Of a stretch of DNA of 64,000 nt, positions 21,211 to 55,271 are shown piece after piece. Source of the stretch: a candidate division WOR-3 bacterium (GTDB taxonomy: Bacteria > Hydrothermota > Tepidihabitantia > SM23-42); the NCBI GenBank assembly GCA_027026255.1, contig JALVOT010000017.1, positions 177,670 to 241,669 of the forward strand, written 5' to 3'. The translations under genes and the position numbers were made by a program. Every line of letters starts with the position of its first letter. Position 1 is the first letter of the stretch. Under the pieces are notes generated by a model that had not been told where the DNA came from, searched no databases, and saw nothing but the letters and a program-made list of their open reading frames with translations.

Positions 21211-21834
21211 CTACTCCTTACCTCCGCCCATATAACTTCTCTCAATCCCTAATAAGACCCTCAAGCCCATAGAAATCATACCCAGGTCAATACCGAATAG
21301 AATTCCCCTTTTTGCTGCGGTATTGGGAACAGTCATTATCCATTCAACCAGATTGGGAAATCCATGCCAGATCCAGTAACCGATTGGAACCCGGCCGATC
21401 ATTACAAGCACGGCGGCAATCAAAAGCAGGGTCGCCTCAGGACTTCTGGCTCGAAACGCCCGAAATGCTGCTGAGGCGACAAAGAACGCCAGCAGTGAAA
21501 ACATCGTCGCACCCAAGGGAATCTGAACATTTTTGTAAAAATATAAAAACAATCCACCTTCGGGTCCGCCGATAAAACCGGCTGCCATCATAACCAGGAG
21601 GCAGATTAAAAGAATGATGCTGTACTGCCAATCCCTTAATCTTCTCTGAATCTTTTCAAGATTTATCTTAATGATATTAAATATTCCGATAAAGATAAAG
21701 AATGCCATCACCCCAATATACCAGTTCTGAAAGGTCTGGGATGTATCCTGAATTCCTTTCAAGGGAATAAAGAAACTTACCAGCATAAAGAAACCAAATC
21801 CAAAAACCACGATTATCGGTAAAATACTTTTCAT
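21211..21834 (-). CDS. Polytopic membrane protein. Paralogue of 1..477.
   Basis: 207 aa with 5-6 TM helices. Confidence 0.65.
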   Translation of the reverse strand: MKSILPIIVVFGFGFFMLVSFFIPLKGIQDTSQTFQNWYIGVMAFFIFIGIFNIIKINLEKIQRRLRDWQYSIILLICLLVMMAAGFIGGPEGGLFLYFYKNVQIPLGATMFSLLAFFVASAAFRAFRARSPEATLLLIAAVLVMIGRVPIGYWIWHGFPNLVEWIMTVPNTAAKRGILFGIDLGMISMGLRVLLGIERSYMGGGKE

Positions 21835-22913
21835 TATCTTGTTGTCTTAAAAAGGTTATAAAAATATTGATTGCCTAAGAGTCTTGTAATAACGCCAATC
21901 ACAATCACCAGAATAAATATCAGTTTGCCAAAATCCTGTCCTTTTAAAGAGCCAATTTGAATCGGTTCCTGGGATAGATAGGCACTTGCCGCATAAAGCT
22001 CTTCACCGAGCAGGGTGTAATCACAGGCCGCCACGAAGAATGGTAATTGATCAGGCATCGCCGTTCCTGCAATCTGGATTGCGCCGGTATAATGTCCGGT
22101 CTCAGCCAGAATGAGTGATTCTGCATAAAAGCAGCCGAGATAGAGATTGGTTGCCGGTTTCTCTCGAACCATCATACCATCCACCGCAGAGACATAACCG
22201 AACTGGTCGTCAGTAAGATACCGGATATTATCGGCATTAAACCAGTCAGGTCTTCCCACCTTGGTCGCTGACTCTTTAACTACCTGCTGCGCCATACTCA
22301 TCGCCATCGCCTTACTGGTCGGCACATAAAGTGGGGTGCCGTATTCTGCAGTCTTTTCCGCAACCCTGGCAAGGATACTCATCGCGGCAATGGTCTGGGG
22401 ATTATCGATATCCATTATCCCGGGGACAAACAGCACCGGCTTACCCATCTCAGTCGCCCGACCGATCGCCTCTTCGACCGCTGTAAGGGCTGGAATCTTT
22501 CTGATGTATAACTTTTCACCCTTGCGGGCACGGGAAATGTAGAAAAGAATTACGGCGAACAGGATAATCATACAGACGGCAATATTCAGACGGCCAAGAT
22601 TGAAAATCTGGGCAATCGGCCTTACCGGCCCCGCAGTATTTGAAAAAAACACCGTATCCAATCCGGCGCCTTTGATGCGATAATAATATTTAGTTCCGGC
22701 CTTTACCGCGGTATCCACATAGGTTGTCTTACCCGATTCAACCCGGGCGATCTCTTTAAAATCATGCTCCGGGAAGATACTGCGCAGGATTTGATAACTA
22801 CTTATTAATGTATCACTACTCCAGGACAGTGTAATACTGGAACCGTCGTCATTGGGTGTATCATAAACATCAAGACTTATCCCCTGCACCAGTATTAATA
22901 ATATCAAAAACAT
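21834..22913 (-). CDS. Membrane protein with an N-terminal fibronectin-III-like domain, two TM segments and a central domain of about 200 aa. First gene of the long minus-strand array.
   Basis: 359-aa ORF. The FN3-like region is SITLSWSS...YYYRIKGAG, followed by a TM helix LNIAVCMIILFAVILFYI. A leaderless sigma70 promoter lies immediately upstream. Confidence 0.5.
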   Translation of the reverse strand: MFLILLILVQGISLDVYDTPNDDGSSITLSWSSDTLISSYQILRSIFPEHDFKEIARVESGKTTYVDTAVKAGTKYYYRIKGAGLDTVFFSNTAGPVRPIAQIFNLGRLNIAVCMIILFAVILFYISRARKGEKLYIRKIPALTAVEEAIGRATEMGKPVLFVPGIMDIDNPQTIAAMSILARVAEKTAEYGTPLYVPTSKAMAMSMAQQVVKESATKVGRPDWFNADNIRYLTDDQFGYVSAVDGMMVREKPATNLYLGCFYAESLILAETGHYTGAIQIAGTAMPDQLPFFVAACDYTLLGEELYAASAYLSQEPIQIGSLKGQDFGKLIFILVIVIGVITRLLGNQYFYNLFKTTR

Positions 22914-22959
22914 TATATTATAATATTCAAATTTAAATAAATGTCAAGATGTAGAGGTT

Positions 22960-23364
22960 CTTACTCCTCTCCACTTTTTTCATTGTGCCTCCCGGATTAA
23001 TTGCAACGGTATTCTGGACAGAATAAATTTCCCTGAGATTATTAAACCAGGACGAAAAATACTCAACAACTTCGTTTTACTTTTTTATATTATTTTATTG
23101 GTCATTTGAAAAATTTCTCTACCATCTTTACTTGGTCCCATTTTCTCAGCGCGGACGGCATTTCCATTTTCTCAGCGCGGGCGGCGTTTCCATTTTTCTC
23201 AGCGCGGGCGGCGTTTCTCATTTTTCTCAGCGCGGGCGGCGTCCCCGCCGCCCGCTGGAGGTTTATCATTCCTGCAGCCCGCCAGGCGCCCTGCCTCGGG
23301 ACGGGACGCCCCCCGGCTATATTGTACTTACAAAAAGCCGGGACAAAAAGTGGAGGGAAATCAG
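22960..23364 (+). repeat. Repeat element copy A. It is full length and carries four 27-bp tandem units.
   Basis: Left terminal inverted repeat (TIR) CTTACTCCTCTCCACTTTTT, right TIR AAAAAGTGGAGGGAAATCAG. Internally, TTTTCTCAGCGCGGGCGGCGTTTCCAT-type units repeat four times and end in the hairpin GCGGGCGGC-gtcccc-GCCGCCCGC. Confidence 0.85.
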
Positions 23365-23523
23365 GTAGAGGTTTAAAACATTGCATCCATCCCAGGAAAA
23401 ATTTTTGAGGTGAAGAAGGATGTCTGTTCAGCAGAAATTATTCTAAAATAACTTCCTTGACTTTCCGATAAAATTTGCTAAACTAACTCACCAATTAACA
23501 ATAAAACTTTTAAAGGAGGTCTG

Positions 23524-31284: not shown

Positions 31285-31309
31285 AAAAACCTCCTTTTAC
31301 ATACTTTAT

Positions 31310-31326
31310 GTGCAAAATCCGTGCCA
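31310..31326 (-). promoter_or_regulatory. Sigma54 (RpoN) -24/-12 promoter.
   Basis: The minus strand reads TGGCACG-GATT-TTGCA, a perfect match to TGGCACG-N4-TTGCW. It lies about 25 nt upstream of the small peptide ATG and is followed by an RBS. Confidence 0.75.
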
Positions 31327-31378
31327 GACCATTTTGTCTGGAATTTCAAGGTTTTGCCGAAAAAAGACAAACAAAAAA

Positions 31379-31395
31379 TGTGCCAAAATGGCACA
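31379..31395. promoter_or_regulatory. Palindromic upstream activator sequence 1 (candidate enhancer-binding-protein site).
   Basis: TGTGCCA-AAA-TGGCACA. This is a perfect 7-bp inverted repeat about 65 bp upstream of the -24 element. Confidence 0.55.
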
Positions 31396-31448
31396 TTTTC
31401 GGGCTGTTCTGTAAAGCATTGCAAACACTGCATTCACCAGATAGGAAG

Positions 31449-31465
31449 TGTGTCATTTTGGCACA
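31449..31465. promoter_or_regulatory. Palindromic upstream activator sequence 2.
   Basis: TGTGTCA-TTT-TGGCACA (one mismatch to site 1), about 135 bp upstream of -24. Another TGTGCCA half-site follows at 31468..31474. Confidence 0.5.
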
Positions 31466-31803
31466 TATGTGCCAGCAGCCCTGCAGTTTTTATGCCTGAA
31501 CCGGGCTGACTGAGTAATACTACCTACATATTTATTATGAAATCTCCTGAAATTTAAGCTTTTTCATTAAGGTACCCGCTTCTCTGATGACTTTACCATC
31601 ACAAAAGATTTATCCCCGGGTGTAATCACACATACCTGCCGGAACGACCGATATCCGGGCGAATTATTATCTTAAACCTCTCCCGGATTTCCTGACAATT
31701 ACTCTGCGGTGATTCTTCGCTGAATGACTTTTCTTTCTTTAATAGTCTGCTTCCGACTGAATTCTAAATTCAGGTGAATATCTCCGGTTATCAACCTGAT
31801 AGT

Positions 31804-31915
31804 CTGACTCCTCTCCACTTTTTGTCCTGGTTTTTTGTAAGCTATGTAGGTTACAATATAGCCGGGCGGCGTCTCGCCCCGAGGCGGGGACGCCGCCTTC
31901 GCTGAGAAAAATTGA
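31804..31915 (-). repeat. Repeat element copy F. It is a right-end stub in minus orientation.
   Basis: The reverse complement reads ...GCGGCGTCCCCGCCTCGGGGCGAGACGCC..CCGGCTATATTGTAACCTACATAGCTTACAAAAAACCAGGACAAAAAGTGGAGAGGAGTCAG. Confidence 0.75.
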
Positions 31916-34900: not shown

Positions 34901-35249
34901 ACTTATCAATACCGTATTTTTCAATATCCCGTTTTGAATTGAAACCGAGTTCCCTCTCCACTTCAACCTCAACCCAGAGCCCCTGACAGTCAAATCCATT
35001 CTGATAGCGTTGCTCAAATCCCTGCATTGTCTTATACCGCTGGAAGATATCCTTATAGGTTCTACCCCAGGCATGATGCACCCCCATCGGATTATTTGCC
35101 GTGATTGGACCATCCTGGAATGACCATTTTTTCTTACCCCTGTTCTTGTTTTTATATCTGGTAAAAATATCCTGACTATCCCAGAACTTGAGGATGCGAT
35201 GTTCGATTTCAACAAAGTTGAGTTCCCTGGGCACCTTATTAAAAAGCAT
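31995..35249 (-). CDS. ileS: Isoleucine--tRNA ligase, type 2.
   Basis: 1084-aa ORF with the HIGH-region variant PMGVHHAWGRTYKD, KMSKS as KMHKSKGN, and a zinc-binding C-terminal domain. A leaderless TTGACA-17-TATAAT promoter lies immediately upstream. Confidence 0.95.
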   Translation of the reverse strand: MLFNKVPRELNFVEIEHRILKFWDSQDIFTRYKNKNRGKKKWSFQDGPITANNPMGVHHAWGRTYKDIFQRYKTMQGFEQRYQNGFDCQGLWVEVEVERELGFNSKRDIEKYGIDKFVCKCKERAHRYSMIQTEQSIRLGMWMDWGEWLTALDDPKWMEKSHSYYTMSDVNNYTIWHFLKRCNERGLIYKGADVMPWCARCGTAISDMEIATEGYQELTHRAVVVRFPIIGRQQEYLLVWTTTPWTLTSNTAVAVHPELIYVKVKNNGAIYYLAKKLLKVLKGDYQVLEEFPGKKLIGLTYKGPFEYLPVQKGIVHKVIPWEEISEEEGTGLVHIAPGCGKEDFTLGKEFGLATIAPLDELGCYVDGFDWLSHMDVKNVANPIIEDLKKQGQLYSVEDYTHRYPICWRCQSELIFRLVDEWFISMDSLRYEIAEVTRKVERWIPEYGLDRELDWLKNMSDWCISKKRYWGLALPIWECSCGHFTVIGSKDELKEKAIQGWDEFEGHSPHRPWVDKIKIKCEKCGKLVSRIPDVGNPWLDAGIVPYSTIRPPDDMHNLKNGYPYDKSYWKDWFPADFITECFPGQFRNWFYAILTMSTVLEKQPPFKVLLGHALIRDEHGEEMHKSKGNAIWFEEAAEKIGADVMRWMFAGHNPVQNLNFGYGPAKEIKRNLLTFWNIYSFFVTYANIDGFNPSGKEVDKNSITKLDRWILSRLNSLIRNCEKFYDDYDVVSVVKQTERFFDELSNWYIRRTRRRFWKSENDQDKMNAYCVLYECLVKLLKLIAPIMPFLTEEIYQNIVVRVDKESPVSIHLNDFPEVSEEMIDEDLENEVQLTREIVSLGRSARNKVRIKIRQPLKEMIVEIPDGFPRPSEDDIKIIQEELNVKGIKTAEPGALDNLITYQLKPRFDQLGPKFGRDAGNIAQLIKSLSPDRIKEFMKSKSLTIDYNGKKVRIEETDVEVVIVEKAGWSVVRERELGVGINTRLSPELEDEGLVRELIHRIQLLRKEADFNLVDRIIIFYQTDERLKNAIINNLDYLKNETLALEVIEAMDEKETGEIDKDLDINGNRVWISLKRIRHPQVNAFD

Positions 35250-35398
35250 AGTAGTATTATATCAGATTTTTAATGACTGTCAAGTGCAACCTGGCAAAAG
35301 TTCAGCATCGGATATTTTCAGGACAATAACTTGATTATTATTTTGTAAGATAACAAATGAAAAAAAAGAAAAAAAAATCATTCCTTATTATTTATTAT

Positions 35399-35769
35399 TT
35401 AACTCCTCTCCATTTTTTTCATTGTGCCTCCCGGATTAATTGCAACGGTATTCTGGACAGAATAAACTTCTCTGAGATTATTAAACCAAGACGAAAAATA
35501 TTCAACAACTTCGTTTTACTTTGTATTTATTTGTCATTTGAAAAATTTCTCTACCATCTTCGCCCGGTTCCGTTTTTCTCAGCGTGGGCGGCGTCCCCGT
35601 TTTTTTCAGCGCGGGCGGCGTTTCCATTTTTTTCAGCGCGGGCGGCGTCCCCGCCGCCCGCTGGAGGTTTATCATTCTTACAGCCCGCCAGGCGCCCTGT
35701 CTCGGGGCGGGACGCCCCCGGCTATATTGTACTTACAAAAAACCGGGACAAAAAGTGGAGGAAAGTCAG
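35399..35769 (+). repeat. Repeat element copy B. It is full length and carries three tandem units.
   Basis: Left TIR ..AACTCCTCTCCATTTTTTT and right TIR AAAAAGTGGAGGAAAGTCAG. The internal sequence is about 90% identical to copy A. Confidence 0.85.
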
Positions 35770-35815
35770 CCTTATTATACCTTGACAACTAAAAAATTAT
35801 GAATAGAATCAGAAT

Positions 35816-36331
35816 ATGAAAGGGATATCAAGGGTGATTCTATTTAAATATTTGACTCCTCAAGAAGTAAACTGGATGCTGGTAAAATGGCAGCCCAAGG
35901 AAGTGCGTGAGGGCACGGTTATTATTAAAGAAGGAACAACCGGTGATGAGATGTACATTATTGAATCAGGTAAGGTCGAGGTCTATCTCACCCGGGGAGA
36001 TGTTGTGCTTCTTCTGTCTGAATTGCAAGAGGCATCATTCTTTGGGGAAATGACCCTGCTAACCGATAAGCCTCGTTCCGCAACGGTTAAGGCAAAAACA
36101 AATTGTCGGTTACTGATCCTGAAAAAACAGGAATTTATGAAAATTATTGATGAGAATCCCCGGATTGCAGCAAAATTTCTTATGGCAATGGGTGAAGACC
36201 TTTCCAATCGAATAATGGCGACCAATGCCAATTTAGAAAATTATTTTCTGATAAATCAGGCGATTGTCGATAACAAATCCTTTCGGGATCTTTATATCCT
36301 TACCCATAAGGCCCCATCGTCTAGCGGTTAG
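35816..36331 (+). CDS. Cyclic-nucleotide-binding domain protein.
   Basis: 171-aa ORF with the cNMP-binding signature (FGEMTLLTDKPRSATVKA). There is no obvious DNA-binding HTH. The 3' end overlaps tRNA-Glu. Confidence 0.7.
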   Translation: MKGISRVILFKYLTPQEVNWMLVKWQPKEVREGTVIIKEGTTGDEMYIIESGKVEVYLTRGDVVLLLSELQEASFFGEMTLLTDKPRSATVKAKTNCRLLILKKQEFMKIIDENPRIAAKFLMAMGEDLSNRIMATNANLENYFLINQAIVDNKSFRDLYILTHKAPSSSG

Positions 36332-41150: not shown

Positions 41151-41205
41151 CTGACTCCTCTCCACTTTTTATCTTGATTGTTTAAGAAATATGTAAGTTA
41201 CAGTG
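41151..41205 (-). repeat. Repeat element copy G. It is a short right-end stub in minus orientation.
   Basis: The reverse complement reads ...TGTAACTTACATATTTCTTAAACAATCAAGATAAAAAGTGGAGAGGAGTCAG. A further 16 nt separate this from TTGACA. Confidence 0.75.
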
Positions 41206-44946: not shown

Positions 44947-45162
44947 GCTTCGCGCGGTTCAATTTTTACCAGTGCGGGCGGTATTTCCATTTTTCTCAGC
45001 GCGGGCGGCGTCCCCGCCGCCCGCTGGAAATTTGTCATCCTCAACTCGTTTCAGAATCTCCTGCAGCCCGCCAGGCGCCCTGCCTCGGGGCGGGACGCCC
45101 GCCGGCTATATTGTAACCTACACAGCTTACAAAAACCGGGACAAAAAGTGGAGAGGAATCAG
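44947..45162 (+). repeat. Repeat element copy C. It is the right half only, with a roughly 45-bp internal insertion that is shared with copy E.
   Basis: ...CAGTGCGGGCGGTATTTCCATTTTTCTCAGCGCGGGCGGCGTCCCCGCCGCCCGC...CCGGCTATATTGTAACCTACACAGCTTACAAAAACCGGGACAAAAAGTGGAGAGGAATCAG. Confidence 0.8.
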
Positions 45163-45208
45163 AAATTTAATCTATTGACTTTTCATAATTTTTTATTACA
45201 ATATCAGT

Positions 45209-46312
45209 ATGAAGATATGCGTTGTGGGTGGAGGCAGACAGGGCAGAGTGGCTGCCCAGGATTTGGCTGAATCCGGGTATCGGGTTACGGTCCTGGATAT
45301 AAATAAAAAGAATCTTAAAAATCTTTCACAACATAAAAATATTACCACCAGGGTTTTTACGGTCGAGAACCGAAAACAGTTTGTGAAACTCTTGAAAAAA
45401 TTTGACCTCATTGTCGGTGCTCTGCCGGCAAGATTGGGCAGGTATTTAATGGAATGTGCAATTGATGCAGGGATCGACCTTGTTGACCTATCCTATTTAC
45501 CGGAAGACCCTTTCCTGCTTGATAAAAAGGCAAAGGCGAAGAAGGTGCGTATCGTTCCTGATGCCGGATTCGCCCCTGGTCTCAGTAATATTATTGTTGG
45601 TAGATTCAATGAAGAGTTTGGGGGTCTGGATTATATTAAGATTATGGTCGGTGGATTACCGCAGAAACCGGTTCCGCCATTCAATTACTACATTACCTGG
45701 TCACCGGTGGATCTGATTGAGGAGTATACAAGAACAGCCCGTATTGTAAGGAATGATAAAATATTAAAGATCGAACCCTTAACCGGGATTGAGGAGTTCA
45801 AGATACCCCGGATTGGTCGGCTTGAAGCATTTTATACAGATGGCTTAAGAACGCTGCTTCGCACATTTAAAAAAACCAAAAATATGGAAGAAAAAACAAT
45901 TCGTTATACTGGTCATGCCCGGATTTTCAAAACCCTGATCGATATCGGTCTTTTTTCAGACAGAAAGATTAAAATTAATAGAAGCAACATCATACTTAAA
46001 AATTTTACGCTTGAATTTTTAAAAGAGGCGTTAACCCGGGGTGATGAAAAAGATATCTCCATCCTCAGAATTGAATTGAAAAAAGGAAGAAAAAGATGTC
46101 GGATTGAATGTATTGATTATTATGATACACATAAGAAGATAACATCAATGGCAAGACTCACCGCATATACCGGTTCAATTATTGCCCAGCATATCAAGGA
46201 ATATCCAAAATTTGGTGTTATCGCTCCAGAATACCTCGGTCAGAACCGGGATATCTGGGATAAAATCGAAACCGAACTCAAAAAACGAAGGATTAAATTA
46301 AGCTATAGATAA
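45209..46312 (+). CDS. Saccharopine dehydrogenase-family NAD(P)-binding oxidoreductase.
   Basis: 367-aa ORF with the N-terminal Rossmann motif MKICVVGGGRQGRVAA. A leaderless promoter TTGACT-16-TACAAT-6-ATG lies upstream. Confidence 0.65.
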   Translation: MKICVVGGGRQGRVAAQDLAESGYRVTVLDINKKNLKNLSQHKNITTRVFTVENRKQFVKLLKKFDLIVGALPARLGRYLMECAIDAGIDLVDLSYLPEDPFLLDKKAKAKKVRIVPDAGFAPGLSNIIVGRFNEEFGGLDYIKIMVGGLPQKPVPPFNYYITWSPVDLIEEYTRTARIVRNDKILKIEPLTGIEEFKIPRIGRLEAFYTDGLRTLLRTFKKTKNMEEKTIRYTGHARIFKTLIDIGLFSDRKIKINRSNIILKNFTLEFLKEALTRGDEKDISILRIELKKGRKRCRIECIDYYDTHKKITSMARLTAYTGSIIAQHIKEYPKFGVIAPEYLGQNRDIWDKIETELKKRRIKLSYR

Positions 46313-46574: not shown

Positions 46575-46857
46575 CAGATAACCGAGATTATTAAACTAAG
46601 ACGGAAAAATACTCAACAACTTCGTTTTACTTTTTTTATATTATTTTATTGGTTATTTGAAAAAATTCTCTACCATCTTCGCCCGGTTCAATTTTTCTCA
46701 GCGCTGACGGCGTCCCCTTTTTTCTCAGCGCGGGCGGCGTCCCCGCCGCCCGCTGGAGGTTTGTCATTCTTACAACCCGCCAGGCACCCTGCCTCGGGGC
46801 GAGACGCCCCCGGCTATATTGTACTTACAAAAAACCGGGATAAAAAGTGAAGCTGAA
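46575..46857 (+). repeat. Repeat element copy D. It lacks the left terminus and has two tandem units and a degenerate right end.
   Basis: GAGATTATTAAACTAAGACGGAAAAATACTCAACAACTTCGTTTTAC...GCGGGCGGCGTCCCCGCCGCCCGC...CCGGCTATATTGTACTTACAAAAAACCGGGATAAAAAGTGAAGCTGAA. Confidence 0.8.
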
Positions 46858-46906
46858 CCATCCCTTTCAACCTTGACATTCAATCTTTTCCAGATATTAT
46901 GTAGTT

Positions 46907-47359
46907 ATGATTCTTTTTCTTATCTCCTTTTCATTGGCTGTTGAAGGCGGTTATTTCCAGCCATTTAATGGTTTTGAAGATATAAATAGGGGTGTTTGTT
47001 TGACCATCACAATGAAGAAAAACGAATCACCTATAATCTATGGTCTTTTTTTTAACACAATGTATTGCCCGGGCAAGAATCCAGATTATTCCCTGAACAA
47101 AACCGACCTGGGGTTTATTATATATCAGGGAAGATGGCGGCTGTCCCCGGTATTTGAGTTCGGCGTCGATTATATTAAGCGTCATCTTTCAGAATATCAA
47201 GAGATCGGTTATGGATTTTCATACGGAATTGGTGTATTATTCAATTTTAATTATGAACAGATTCATATTATTCCCGGGATATATTATGACGGCGTTACTG
47301 ACTTTAAAGAGAACGGGGGATTTCTGGGATTACGATTGGGAATCGATTATGAAATATAA
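46907..47359 (+). CDS. Hypothetical protein.
   Basis: 150-aa ORF rich in Tyr/Gly/Phe, suggesting a beta-rich fold. A leaderless promoter lies upstream. Confidence 0.4.
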   Translation: MILFLISFSLAVEGGYFQPFNGFEDINRGVCLTITMKKNESPIIYGLFFNTMYCPGKNPDYSLNKTDLGFIIYQGRWRLSPVFEFGVDYIKRHLSEYQEIGYGFSYGIGVLFNFNYEQIHIIPGIYYDGVTDFKENGGFLGLRLGIDYEI

Positions 47360-52406: not shown

Positions 52407-52714
52407 CACACTTACTGTGGGTCAAACCTCTTTTTATACTTATCAATTAATTATTAAATTCAAAGATTATCAGGTTATCTTCCACTTTTTGACTTCTCTT
52501 TCTGGATAAGAACAATCCACGATTCCGTATAAAAGATTGAATCGGGATGCCGGCTTAAAAATATGAAGAAGTCATAGAAAAGCGATTTTGAAATAAAACC
52601 ACACAAATCACAAAACCAAATAGGCTCGAATTCTTTGTCTGTAAACAGTTAACCGCTTTTAAAATTTTTAAATATATAATTGACAAATTTTAAAAAATTG
52701 TTATAATGAACAAT

Positions 52715-52790: not shown

Positions 52791-52907
52791 TTTTTATAAT
52801 AATCTGCCGGACATATCGTATTCAGAATCTTGAACCGCTGTATTGTGCTATTGACTTTTTAAAAATTTTGAAGATAATAGATGCCAATATCGAAAGGAGG
52901 TAAGATT

Positions 52908-54035
52908 ATGTACGACAAAAAGACTGACCTTGCTGGACCAGGAGTCTCCACCTATGAAGAACTGGAGAATATTCTGCCCAACGATTATGAACCAATCCTT
53001 CCCCCCAAGGAAAGGATGCATGCGCTATTTGAGGTCAAAAAATATATCGAGGATAATCTCTGCAAAGAGTTGAATCTCTTTATGGTTCAGGTTCCCCTGA
53101 TTGTGGATGAAAAGAGTGGGGTTAATGATATGCTGGACCGGGATGGTTCACGCACACCGGTTACATTCAACTGTGGTCTGGGATTAAAAGAACCGATCCG
53201 TGCCCAGATTGTCCAGGCGGCGACTAAGTGGAAACGTCTTGCCCTGAAGCAGTTTGATTGCAACCTCGGCGAAGGTATCCTTACTGATATGAGGGCGGTG
53301 CGTAAAGACTATTTTCTTGACCACGACCATTCTTCTTATGTTGACCAGTGGGATTGGGAGAGGGTAATTACTGACAAGGACCGTAACTTAGATTTTTTAA
53401 AAGATATCGTAAAGAGAATCTGGAAGGTCATTTATGGCGCCGGGAAATATGTTCAGGAATTATTCCCGAAATTGAAGACCAGTAAGTATTCTGACTTTCC
53501 TGAAGAACTGACATTCTTACATGCCGAGGATATCCTTGATATGTACCCGGACCTTCCCCGTAAACAGCGTGAGACAAAGGTTCTTCAAAAATATCCAGCG
53601 ATATTTATTATCGGCATCGGTTATCCATTAAAGGACGGCTATCCCCATGAAATGAGGGCGGCGGACTATGATGATTGGATTACCGAAACAAAATCCGAGG
53701 ACGGCAGAACAATGCACGGACTTAATGGTGATATTCTGGTCTGGAATCCAGTAACCAGAAGACGGCATGAACTGACCTCAATGGGGATTCGTGTCACCAA
53801 AGAGACATTGGTCAAACAGCTGGAGATGGCCGGACAATTGGAAAATCTCAAACTGCCCTACCATCAGAAGATAATGAATGATGAAATTCCATTATGCATC
53901 GGCGGCGGTATTGGTCAGTCAAGGACCTATATGTATCTTCTGAGAACCGCTCATCTGGGTGAGGTAAGTGTTACGGTCTGGCCTGATGTCCTTAAAAAGA
54001 TGTGCGCAAAGCGAAATATCTTTGTGCTTGAATAA
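52908..54035 (+). CDS. asnA: Aspartate--ammonia ligase (asparagine synthetase A).
   Basis: The start is at MYDKK, preceded by AAGGAGG. Long colinear matches to E. coli AsnA include YVDQWDWERV, DYDDW, LNGDILVWNPV..ELSSMGIRV and IGGGIGQSR. Confidence 0.9.
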   Translation: MYDKKTDLAGPGVSTYEELENILPNDYEPILPPKERMHALFEVKKYIEDNLCKELNLFMVQVPLIVDEKSGVNDMLDRDGSRTPVTFNCGLGLKEPIRAQIVQAATKWKRLALKQFDCNLGEGILTDMRAVRKDYFLDHDHSSYVDQWDWERVITDKDRNLDFLKDIVKRIWKVIYGAGKYVQELFPKLKTSKYSDFPEELTFLHAEDILDMYPDLPRKQRETKVLQKYPAIFIIGIGYPLKDGYPHEMRAADYDDWITETKSEDGRTMHGLNGDILVWNPVTRRRHELTSMGIRVTKETLVKQLEMAGQLENLKLPYHQKIMNDEIPLCIGGGIGQSRTYMYLLRTAHLGEVSVTVWPDVLKKMCAKRNIFVLE

Positions 54036-54099
54036 TACAACCATTTAATCGGTCGTTATCCCGCCCTGCTAAACCAACCCGGGAATTAGCTCTCCTAAA

Positions 54100-54138
54100 C
54101 TTGACATTTCCTGCTGCACCTGAAATGTCAAGTTTAGG
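54100..54138 (+). terminator. Hairpin terminator candidate downstream of asnA.
   Basis: CTTGACATTTC-ctgctgcacct-GAAATGTCAAG followed by TTTAGG. The T-tract is weak. Confidence 0.45.
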
Positions 54139-54156
54139 ATTACCGCTTATTCTCAG

Positions 54157-54496
54157 CTGATTCCTATCCACTTTTTTCATTATGCCTCCGGGATTAATTG
54201 CAACGGTATTCTGGACAGAATAAACTTCCCTGAGATTAGTAAAATAAGATGAAAAATACTCAACAACTTCGTTTTACTTTTTTTATATTATTATTGGTCA
54301 TTTGAAAAATTTCTCTACCATCTCCGCCCGGTTCAATTTTTTCTCAGCGCGGGCGGCGTCCCCGCCGCCCGCTGGAGGTTTGTCATCCTCAACTCGTTTC
54401 ATACTCGCCGGGCGCCCTGCCTCGGGGCGAGACGCCCCTCCGGCTATATTGTAACATAGTTTAAAAAAACCGGGACAAAAAGTGGAGAGAAGTCAG
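54157..54496 (+). repeat. Repeat element copy E. It is full length and carries one tandem unit.
   Basis: Left TIR CTGATTCCTATCCACTTTTT and right TIR AAAAAGTGGAGAGAAGTCAG. Sixteen nt downstream lies TTGATT-16-TATAAT-6-ATG of the pcrB-like gene. Confidence 0.85.
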
Positions 54497-54542
54497 TATT
54501 CTCAGCCCTTGATTTTTTTCCTTACTCAGGTATAATCAAGAT

Positions 54543-55271
54543 ATGGCAATAAAAAAGGTCTCGGCACTTCTTAATAGACTAAAACCCGGGGTGCTGGCTT
54601 TATTCGACCCGGACCGAATACAATGGGGAAACATTGAATCCCTGACCCGGTTCGTATGCGAATCCGGTGTAAAAGGTATCCTTATCGGTTCATCAATCCT
54701 GCTCAACCCCAATTTCGAGCAATTCGTCCTTAAGGTTAAGAAAAATGCTACCTGTCCGGTAATCCTCTTTCCCGGAGGCTCACATCAATTATCTTCCTAT
54801 GCTGATGCCATCTTCTTCCTTTCACTTTTAAGCGGCAGAAATCCTCAATTTTTAATCGGTGAACAGATTAAGGCGGTCTTTTTAATAAAAGAATATAACT
54901 TAGAAGTGATTCCGGTCGGTTATATTCTGATTGAATCAGGAAGCCTTACGGCGGTGGAATATATTTCCGGAACAAAACCCATTCCATATTCCAAACCGGA
55001 GATTGTTATCGCCCATTGTCTTGCCGGACAATATTTCGGGATGAAATATATCTATCTTGAAGCCGGGAGTGGCGCGAAAAGACCGGTTCCGGAAAATGTC
55101 GTCCGGATGGTCAAAAAATATATTAACATCCCCTTAATTGTTGGTGGTGGTATCCGTCGGGAAAAAGATGCCCGGGAGCTTCTGAATGCCGGTGCCGATT
55201 ATATTGTCTTGGGAAGTGTAATTGAGAAATCAAAAAAGACCTTTAAAAAAATTATGAGGAGTTTAATATGA
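54543..55271 (+). CDS. (Hepta)prenylglyceryl-phosphate synthase family protein (PcrB/GGGPS-like TIM barrel).
   Basis: 242-aa ORF with the C-terminal phosphate-binding motif IPLIVGGGIRREKDARELLNAGADYIVLGS. Confidence 0.6.
   Translation: MAIKKVSALLNRLKPGVLALFDPDRIQWGNIESLTRFVCESGVKGILIGSSILLNPNFEQFVLKVKKNATCPVILFPGGSHQLSSYADAIFFLSLLSGRNPQFLIGEQIKAVFLIKEYNLEVIPVGYILIESGSLTAVEYISGTKPIPYSKPEIVIAHCLAGQYFGMKYIYLEAGSGAKRPVPENVVRMVKKYINIPLIVGGGIRREKDARELLNAGADYIVLGSVIEKSKKTFKKIMRSLI

Follow-up and report, generated by a model that had tools for sequence, protein, structure and literature searches.

Repeats of a candidate division WOR-3 bacterium as probable miniature relatives of an IS10-like element inserted next to the -35 box

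A repeat family next to promoters

The window considered here is a 64,000-nucleotide stretch of the genome of a candidate division WOR-3 bacterium (contig JALVOT010000017.1, positions 177,670 to 241,669). It carries a family of intergenic repeats comprising three complete copies of 340 to 405 bp (c1, c2, and c3), two truncated copies (c4 and c5), two clear end-stubs (s1 and s2), and one doubtful stub (s3). These repeats are probably MITEs (miniature inverted-repeat transposable elements), together with relics, of an IS10-like insertion sequence (IS) of the IS4 family, an element that colonises bacteria labelled WOR-3 or 'Candidatus Stahlbacteria' and whose insertion is targeted to TTGAC, the -35 element of the promoter. 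Membership in the IS4 family and MITE nature are ordinary. What seems to be new is the target rule: a duplication of any 9 bp, then any 3 bp, and then the TTGAC that is also the -35 sequence.

The complete copies are bounded by 20-bp inverted ends (CTGACTCCTCTCCACTTTTT). With up to 2 mismatches, the end motif AAAAAGTGGAGAGGAG is matched 7 times in the window, while shuffled sequence yields an expectation of 0.08, and the 20-mer AAAAAGTGGAGAGGAGTCAG, with up to 4 mismatches, recovers 9 ends. Thus, the terminal inverted repeats (TIRs) described in a first-pass annotation of this DNA are borne out. So are the coordinates that it gave for the copies when the sequence is read directly, except that s3 matches the end at just 13 of 20 positions and is doubtful. 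In IS terms, the 'right end' of that annotation is the left inverted repeat (IRL), its 'left end' is the right inverted repeat (IRR), and the strand of a copy is the sense of the ancestral transposase. Copies c1 and c3 lie between perfect 9-bp target-site duplications (TSDs). At c2, the exact left partner lies 7 bp away from the element, an apparent case of 7-bp slippage.

A -35 hexamer starts exactly 12 bp past an element end at c1, c2, c3 (where it is TTGATT), c4, and s2, and 11 bp past the decayed end of c5. The target duplication makes up the first 9 of these 12 bp, so the promoter is part of the target rather than of the element. In four window promoters of this set, the ATG of the gene follows the -10 box by 6 nt, an independent mark of real, leaderless-type promoters. 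An insertion at this position, -48, leaves the core promoter intact and shifts the upstream sequence by 0.2 to 1.2 kb. The earlier claim that every copy sits at a promoter is thus confirmed for c1 to c5 and s2; s1 and s3 have no recognisable -35 at +12. The companion claim, that the right end always points toward the gene, is true for 5 of 6 cases in the window; at c1, it is the left end (IRR) that is proximal, and it serves the minus-strand gene at 21834-22913. The relics c4, c5, and s2 all keep their promoter-proximal end, as expected, because a deletion of that end would also take the promoter. By inspection rather than computation, about 6 of the 15 clear promoters at 22 to 55 kb of the window (roughly 40%) bear an element or a stump.

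Promoters of this lineage share the consensus tcTTGACa, a spacer of 16 nt (not 17), and TAtAAT. Genes of leaderless appearance (a -10 box, 6 nt, and an ATG) are seen at 35804-35818, 45197-45211, 46895-46909, 54531-54545, 22911-22925 (minus strand), and 35247-35261 (minus strand).

The interior of the repeats is rich in G and C, as had been noted before: GC content is 65% at 23131-23320 and 42% over the whole window. It holds one to four tandem copies of a 27-bp unit, TTTTTCTCAGCGCGGGCGGCGTyyCCa, the last of which completes a 10-bp GC hairpin, and a second GC-rich hairpin. This interior is a lineage-specific cargo, and placement is explained without it. Table 1 gives the coordinates of the repeats, of the promoters and genes beside them, and of elements at loci fetched from related metagenome-assembled genomes (MAGs) and metagenomes, which are designated by L numbers.

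Table 1. Coordinates of the repeats, adjacent promoters and genes, and related elements
Feature	Sequence	Position	Strand	Remarks
MITE copy c1	window	22960..23364	-	405 bp; IRR 22960-22979; IRL 23345-23364
c1 TSD	window	22951-22959 (left), 23365-23373 (right)		GTAGAGGTT, 9/9; sequence read directly
c1 interior	window	starts 23141, 23167, 23195, 23222		four 27-bp tandem units; GC hairpin 23228-23257
c1 relic of transposase C-terminus	window	22980..23084	-	ends KLLSIFRPGLIISGKFILSRIPLQLIREAQ, then stop; tblastn against L046 transposase 76% identity, E 1e-7
c1 promoter	window	22920..22947	-	-35 TTGACA 22947-22942, 12 bp beyond IRR; 16-nt spacer; -10 TATTAT 22925-22920
c1-side gene	window	21834-22913	-	ATG at 22913, 6 nt after -10
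MITE copy c2	window	35399..35769	-	371 bp; IRR 35399-35418; IRL 35750-35769; three 27-bp units
c2 relic of transposase C-terminus	window	35425-35523	-	
c2 TSD	window	35770-35778 (right)		CCTTATTAT; adjacent left copy 7/9; exact copy at 35383-35391, 7 bp further left
c2 promoter	window	35770..35816	+	TSD 35770-78, acc, -35 TTGACA 35782-87, 16-nt spacer, -10 TAGAAT 35804-09
c2-side gene start	window	ATG 35816	+	6 nt after -10; leaderless-type
MITE copy c3	window	54157..54496	-	340 bp; IRR 54157-54176; IRL 54477-54496; one 27-bp unit
c3 transposase relic	window	54183-54284	-	
c3 TSD	window	54148-54156 (left), 54497-54505 (right)		TATTCTCAG, 9/9
c3 promoter	window	54509..54543	+	-35 TTGATT 54509-14, 12 bp beyond IRL; -10 TATAAT 54531-36
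c3-side gene	window	ATG 54543	+	PcrB-family
Truncated copy c4	window	44947..45162	-	IRL half alone; IRL 45143-45162
c4 promoter	window			-35 TTGACT 45175-80, 12 bp from end; -10 TACAAT 45197-202; ATG 45209
Truncated, decayed copy c5	window	46575..46857	-	IRR missing; IRL degenerate (AAAAAGTGAAGCTGAACCAT)
c5 promoter	window			-35 TTGACA 46873-78, 11 bp past aligned end; -10 TATTAT 46895-900; ATG 46907
Relic s1	window	31804..31915	+	20/20 IRL at 31804-31823 (outward is minus strand); about 90 bp of body with internal deletion
Relic s2	window	41151..41205	+	20/20 IRL at 41151-41170; about 35 bp of body
s2 promoter	window		-	-35 TTGACA 41138-41133, 12 bp past end; -10 TAGAAT 41116-41111; start codon 41086
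Doubtful relic s3	window	52471..52490	.	13/20 match to end
Arrays of 27-bp units	window	23141-23257, 35574-35664, 44964-45027, 46693-46756, 54339-54375		
Intact element	L046	3655-4838		
Intact element	L037	103-1298		
Intact element	L121	7137-8317		
Intact element	L127	1382-2637		
Intact element	L131	1390-2646		
-35 at +12 on both sides, no TSD	L016	38-292		
-35 at +12 on both sides, no TSD	L042	176-651		
-35 at +12 on both sides, no TSD	L046	3655-4838		
-35 at +12 on both sides, no TSD	L110	119-316		
-35 at +12 on both sides, no TSD	L125	259-1452		
Element with intragenic target	L143	1188-1260		
Element with intragenic target	L144	380-400 and 1595-1640		

Autonomous relatives and the IS4 family

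All three complete copies retain, on the minus strand, the last 33 codons of a transposase and its stop codon (73-79% identity to the transposase of L046, E 4e-8 to 1e-7). The stop codon abuts the IRR, as it does in intact relatives. The first-pass statement that no open reading frame (ORF) is conserved between copies is thus not correct in detail, as it overlooked this remnant. A candidate small ORF reading outward at the left end of the element, with GGGAGG-N4-ATGAAAAAAGTGG as its ribosome-binding site and start, was rejected; comparison with intact relatives indicates that it is really the transposase C-terminus with its TGA stop next to the IRR.

A scan for the end motif in one genome per species gave many matches in MAGs that bear the label candidate division WOR-3 or 'Ca. 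Stahlbacteria', along with chance matches elsewhere. These MAGs contain short elements that have the same 20-bp ends and quite different bodies, as well as intact elements of 1.18-1.26 kb with the same type of TIR, 9-bp duplications, and one ORF of 359-375 amino acids each. The IRR-proximal 110 bp of the window copies are 83% identical to the IS at L046, and when c2 was compared by blastn with all 148 fetched loci, this segment was the sole match. The window copies thus have shared ends and a C-terminal relic, with no transposase gene in the window, which makes them MITEs and relics of the IS10-like element. They carry TIRs and 9-bp TSDs, measure 340-405 bp, and are present in multiple copies (3 full and 4-5 partial per 64 kb). 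The description of the repeats as MITE-like, rather than as IS elements in their own right, is therefore upheld.

Sequence and predicted fold both place the autonomous element in the IS4 family. The L046 transposase scores 166.8 bits against the NCBIfam model NF033591, 'IS4 family transposase' (cutoff 152), and that of L037 scores 136.3, below the cutoff; against Pfam DDE_Tnp_1 (E 1e-15), these two autonomous relatives reach 58 and 44 bits with a cutoff of 23. Residues D109, D172, R267, E271, and K278 are invariant among 42 homologues, and the conservation of Y264 is 90% or more; within the close family of 13 sequences, none of the six varies. The family is defined by a D(60-110)D(100-150)E spacing and a Y(2)R(3)E(6)K motif (PMC2266710). 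In the relatives' transposase, Y264, R267, E271, and K278 form this motif (IYRRRMTIEEGFRDLK), and the DDE residues are spaced 62 and 98 apart, the latter value slightly below the published range; we count this as agreement. Two further traits of the family, a transposase encoded in a single ORF and a target duplication of roughly one helical turn, are seen as well: one ORF fills each intact element, and 23 elements have 9-bp duplications that match at 8 or more positions. A search of the transposase sequence against the PDB gave no match. However, an AlphaFold model of the 363-residue protein (predicted local distance difference test, pLDDT, 89.2) has Tn5 transposase as each of its top five PDB matches (E 4e-11 to 8e-10, TMq 0.61-0.65).

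Assignment to the IS10 subgroup is provisional, since identity is low. Among PLSDB plasmids, the best tblastn matches of the transposase lie on the IS10 of Tn10 (a protein beginning MCELDILHDS…, with the element end CTGATGAATCCCC), with 27-30% identity over 80% of the protein. The family ends, CTGACTCC…, have 5'-CT (CTGA) termini. IS10 also resembles the family in its single-ORF DDE transposase, its Y(2)R(3)E(6)K motif, and its 9-bp duplication. It differs in size (1.33 kb and 402 amino acids, compared to 1.18-1.26 kb and 359-375 amino acids) and in its hosts, which are Proteobacteria rather than WOR-3/Stahlbacteria. Tn5/IS50 transposase (PDB 1MUH, 3ECP, 4DM0) is the best structural match (E 4e-11, TM 0.65). 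IS50 also makes a 9-bp duplication, and its outside end likewise begins CTGACTC. However, Tn5 transposase is only 13-15% identical and about 110 residues longer, and its target preference is weak.

A target rule shared by the family

The spacing found in the window was followed through a pooled set of 125 independent element ends, drawn from the window and about 15 relatives and made up of a genome set and an independent metagenome set. In the genome set, TTGACA with at most 1 mismatch lies at an offset of exactly 12 in 45 of 86 unique ends, and the next most populated offsets hold 2. The metagenome scan reproduced the signal. Over the pooled set, 65 of the 125 ends have TTGAC(A/T) 12 bp further out, where the background is 0.63% per position (P about 1e-107), and a -10 box is present behind 64 of these 65 sites, 58 of them at the 16-nt spacer. 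Given that about half of all ends carry the hexamer, there is about one promoter-facing end per element. Among chance matches to the end motif in unrelated genomes, TTGACA occurs at this offset in 0 of 30.

The elements whose TSDs match at 8 or more of 9 positions, 23 in number, give the same picture: a -35 sequence lies at +12 on exactly one side in 23 of 23 (TTGACA with at most 1 mismatch in 21 and TTGATT in 2). Full-length IS copies with 9/9 TSDs (L121, L127, and L131) obey the rule even though their transposases are only 42-50% identical to that of L046. A relative with 29% identity, L140 (ends CTGACCCATCCCCACTTT), has the same layout, in which the TSD CCCCGCAAA is followed by acc and TTGACC. 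More distant relatives depart from it: L139 and L147 have no TTGAC arm, and L148, with an 11-bp TSD, is ambiguous. Consequently, the property is confined to a clade with ends of the form CTGAnnnnTCYCCACTTT.

The two ends of the element are used alike. Of 28 IRL-type ends, 15 face the promoter, and of 29 IRR-type ends, 18 do, so there is no bias, and the right-end rule suggested by the window copies was an effect of the small sample. Moreover, elements of different species have unrelated bodies yet the same 12-bp spacing, and intact IS copies with perfect TSDs are placed in the same way. It follows that the promoter association stems from the choice of insertion target and not from cargo, and the earlier suggestion of a regulatory cassette finds no support, on the same three grounds. 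Within the duplication itself there is little to recognise; each of its 9 positions (0-8) holds at most 0.26 bit across the 65 promoter-side flanks.

Two observations concern the make-up of the set. At L082 (1205-1224) and L089 (6733-6752), from two MAG species, the same MITE occupies an orthologous site (gtaactcgg gtc TTGACA …TATAAT); this insertion is older than the split of the species, or else the site was struck twice. A conserved locus with the exact 20-mer, present on seven further metagenome contigs (L091, L101, L102, L107-L109, and L122), was left out as an unrelated chance or coding match, since a partner end, a -35 at +12, and an element body are all missing there.

Target choice and its alternatives

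If the probable reading given at the outset is correct, an autonomous element outside the window would supply transposase in trans to the window copies. The transposase would bind the 20-bp ends and integrate by a 9-bp staggered cut, whose trace is the observed duplication. For a target to be captured, TTGAC(A/T) would have to flank it on one side, with 3 bp between the hexamer and the duplicated 9 bp, in keeping with the statistics above. Because TTGAC is the near-invariant -35 box of the σ70-type promoters of this lineage, one end would come to lie 12 bp upstream of the -35 element, in either orientation. Selection would then remove intragenic insertions, and the promoter-proximal site, where the core promoter is left intact, would serve as a safe haven. 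Integration itself must be targeted, since selection alone cannot give a single-base register without neutral insertions elsewhere.

How TTGAC is recognised is less certain. The moderately favoured view is direct readout, in which the transposase itself reads TTGAC as a 'target arm' and purifying selection acts afterwards. Several observations argue for it. The protein is small and wholly Tn5-like. A relative with 32% identity, represented by L143/L144 (ends CTGAAGTTTCCCCACTTT), interrupts an ORF at AGGTAGCAG-tgg-TTGACA, where there is no -10 box; when the element and one copy of the duplication are removed, the reconstructed empty site, …PAEEVAVVDNDVAAKLK…, is one continuous ORF. The two bases 5' of TTGAC are also biased, with C60/A35/T0 and T55/C32 next to elements, compared to C35/A39/G23 and T48 in 31 natural promoters. 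For this comparison, control promoters were defined by a -10 box, a leaderless ATG, and an ORF, with the -35 region ignored; an earlier control, TTGACA-N17-TATAAT, was replaced because its spacer is wrong for this lineage. In addition, the window has 19 YMTTGACW sites, of which 11 are outside long ORFs to begin with, so readout of this 8-mer plus loss of gene-disrupting insertions would be enough to yield copies at promoters only. Finally, precedents for arms exist within the IS4 family: in elements of the IS4 subgroup and in ISRm22, specificity resides in 'target arms' that flank the duplication and not within it (De Palmenaer et al. 2008, PMC2266710). The family resembles these elements in that respect, but the ends of those subgroups are 5'-CA, whereas its own 5'-CT ends are like those of the IS10, IS50, and ISPepr1 subgroups. 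The word 'promoter' is absent from the text of the same survey (PMC2266710), in which the arms are not tied to promoters.

Within the duplication, the family departs from Tn10 as well. IS10 prefers a symmetric NGCTNAGCN inside the duplication; here the duplicated 9 bp are nearly free of information and show no such symmetric sequence, and specificity lies in an asymmetric TTGAC that is 3 bp outside and coincides with the -35 element. In Tn10, bases outside the 9-bp core do influence target choice, and both the sequences just outside that core and bending of the target reportedly affect which site is used (Bender & Kleckner 1992; Pribil & Haniford 2003, the second cited in PMC5481204), a further point in favour of direct readout.

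An alternative that keeps the same MITE/IS identity is that the transposase, or the transpososome, is tethered by the RNA polymerase holoenzyme, through σ region 4 or the C-terminal domain of the α subunit (α-CTD), at the -35 element, in the manner of Ty3 and TFIIIB, so that only occupied promoters would receive insertions. Such tethering would account for a register exact to the base pair and for the proper -10 boxes, at the preferred spacer and ahead of ORFs, behind nearly all of the adjacent TTGAC sites; the cut also falls at -47 to -39, a stretch of upstream DNA that promoter complexes contact and bend. Nor can the invariance of TTGAC beside elements separate readout from recruitment of RNA polymerase, since the promoters are themselves near consensus (TTGAC in 31 of 45 control promoters). 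However, we regard tethering as unlikely. The 363-residue transposase, as modelled, is taken up wholly by the Tn5 fold and has no extra domain, the intragenic TTGACA used by L143/L144 has no -10 box, and there is an added base preference at the two positions 5' of the hexamer. The presence of -10 boxes is equally well explained by selection against intragenic insertions.

It is quite improbable that insertion was loose and that selection or exaptation did the rest, with the 20-bp end or the body acting as a cis-regulatory module at -48 to -67 (a factor site, an insulator, or a terminator). The retained proximal ends of c4, c5, and s2, the conserved insertion at L082 and L089, and the strong GC hairpins of the window copies would all fit such a role. 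Yet all 23 elements with TSDs share a single exact register, neutral intergenic insertions at other places are absent, the promoter may be faced by either end, bodies show no relationship from one species to another, intact IS copies are placed alike, and retention of the proximal end would be expected in any case. The GC hairpins gave weak terminator-like matches only, and a terminator or insulator role for them is not needed, given that placement is explained without it.

We give almost no weight to the idea that the repeats are not mobile DNA at all but a structured non-coding RNA family or a collapsed-repeat artefact of assembly: folding z-scores are about -3 on both strands, and a short-read contig from another run (L138) breaks within the repeat, but Rfam at its gathering threshold passes three tRNAs in the window and nothing for the repeats, pairing between the TIRs and a single 10-bp GC hairpin dominate the folds of single sequences, every copy comes with a separate TSD and with flanks shared by no other, intact IS homologues are present in related MAGs, and the window is 100% identical to the ENA metagenome scaffold ERZ23491057 scaffold_39 (109 kb). 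A break inside the repeat is the behaviour of a real dispersed repeat. The copies are too alike for covariation analysis. The same independent flanks, TSDs, and scaffold match answer the two possibilities that the first-pass annotation had named as fatal to its proposal, namely that the copies flank one larger element or are assembly artefacts.

Several points weigh against the MITE reading or its targeting component. The data all come from metagenome assemblies. The 64-kb window holds no transposase gene, and exact-protein look-ups of two window genes found no presence/absence polymorphism (one had no record, and the other gave just the ENA scaffold and the contig that breaks within the repeat), which leaves current mobility unproven. 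The parent IS of the window lineage was not found, as the IRL pattern of this lineage, CCGGGACAAAAAGTGGAGRRRARTCAG, had 0 matches in the metagenome scan, and nothing comparable to the GC-rich interior with its 27-bp repeats was seen among the intact ISs and MITEs retrieved from related MAGs. Relic s1 has no recognisable -35 at +12, with TTGATA at +9, and s3 is not 12 bp from a -35 sequence. In five elements (Table 1), a -35 lies at +12 from each end and a TSD is missing, which suggests recombination or inversion between copies, or chimeric assembly, as a secondary explanation. As for direct readout, the near-consensus state of the promoters limits what TTGAC can tell, and the only intragenic, promoter-less example is a single case from a distant relative.

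The target preferences commonly ascribed to bacterial ISs are weak, regional, or based on a short sequence; in the present family, every intact copy examined, IS or MITE, keeps a single-bp register to the -35 element, across about 15 MAG species. No -35- or promoter-directed insertion of a bacterial IS was found in the literature searched, and with ISfinder and the subscription literature outside that search, a prior description is possible. The Correia/NEMIS elements of Neisseria and MITEAba12 are likewise short, TIR-bounded, TSD-flanked, intergenic sequences that lack a transposase, derive from or are mobilised by an IS, and often lie near gene starts. They affect expression by the promoters or processing sites that they carry and are not known to lie at a fixed distance from a resident -35 element. 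A closer counterpart in strategy is offered by the 'safe-haven' integration of Ty3, at Pol III start sites, and Tf1, at Pol II promoters, which also insert just upstream of transcription units and spare coding sequence. Those are retroelements tethered by contacts with transcription factors, while the family described here consists of cut-and-paste DDE transposons, which probably recognise the DNA itself. Should tethering nevertheless prove true, the family would be, to our knowledge, the first case of a bacterial DDE transposon with a tether to the transcription machinery, and active promoters would be recorded in its fossil copies. In a weaker version, inserted ends may now serve as insulators or upstream promoter elements, a co-option that would affect a large share of the promoters in the genome.

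The placement accounts for the regulatory look of the repeats without any regulatory cargo. In an uncultured phylum, the elements flag genuine promoters by the dozen (TTGACA, a 16-nt spacer, and TATAAT, often with leaderless genes). With some 40% of clear promoters occupied in the central window, the upstream space used by activators or UP elements may be repeatedly displaced. The family is also a tractable system for how IS4-family enzymes read target arms, and a single-protein transposase of about 360 amino acids with an asymmetric, position-exact target could become a tool for promoter-proximal integration.

Some neighbouring features can be added. Downstream of s1 on the minus strand, about 520 bp (31285-31803) contain no ORF of 80 or more amino acids; a permissive Rfam scan gave sub-threshold noise there. 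Immediately left of c3, and just downstream of the gene at 52881-54035, a long perfect hairpin, ctcctaaacttgacatttc…gaaatgtcaagtttaggag, occupies 54093-54140 and is probably the terminator of that gene; TTGACA is present in both of its arms. Among the intact relatives, L127 (1402-1440) and L131 (1410-1450) have a GC hairpin (cctccccc ttga tgggggagg) just inside the IRL and upstream of the transposase start, which, by analogy with IS10 and IS50, could guard against read-in transcription.

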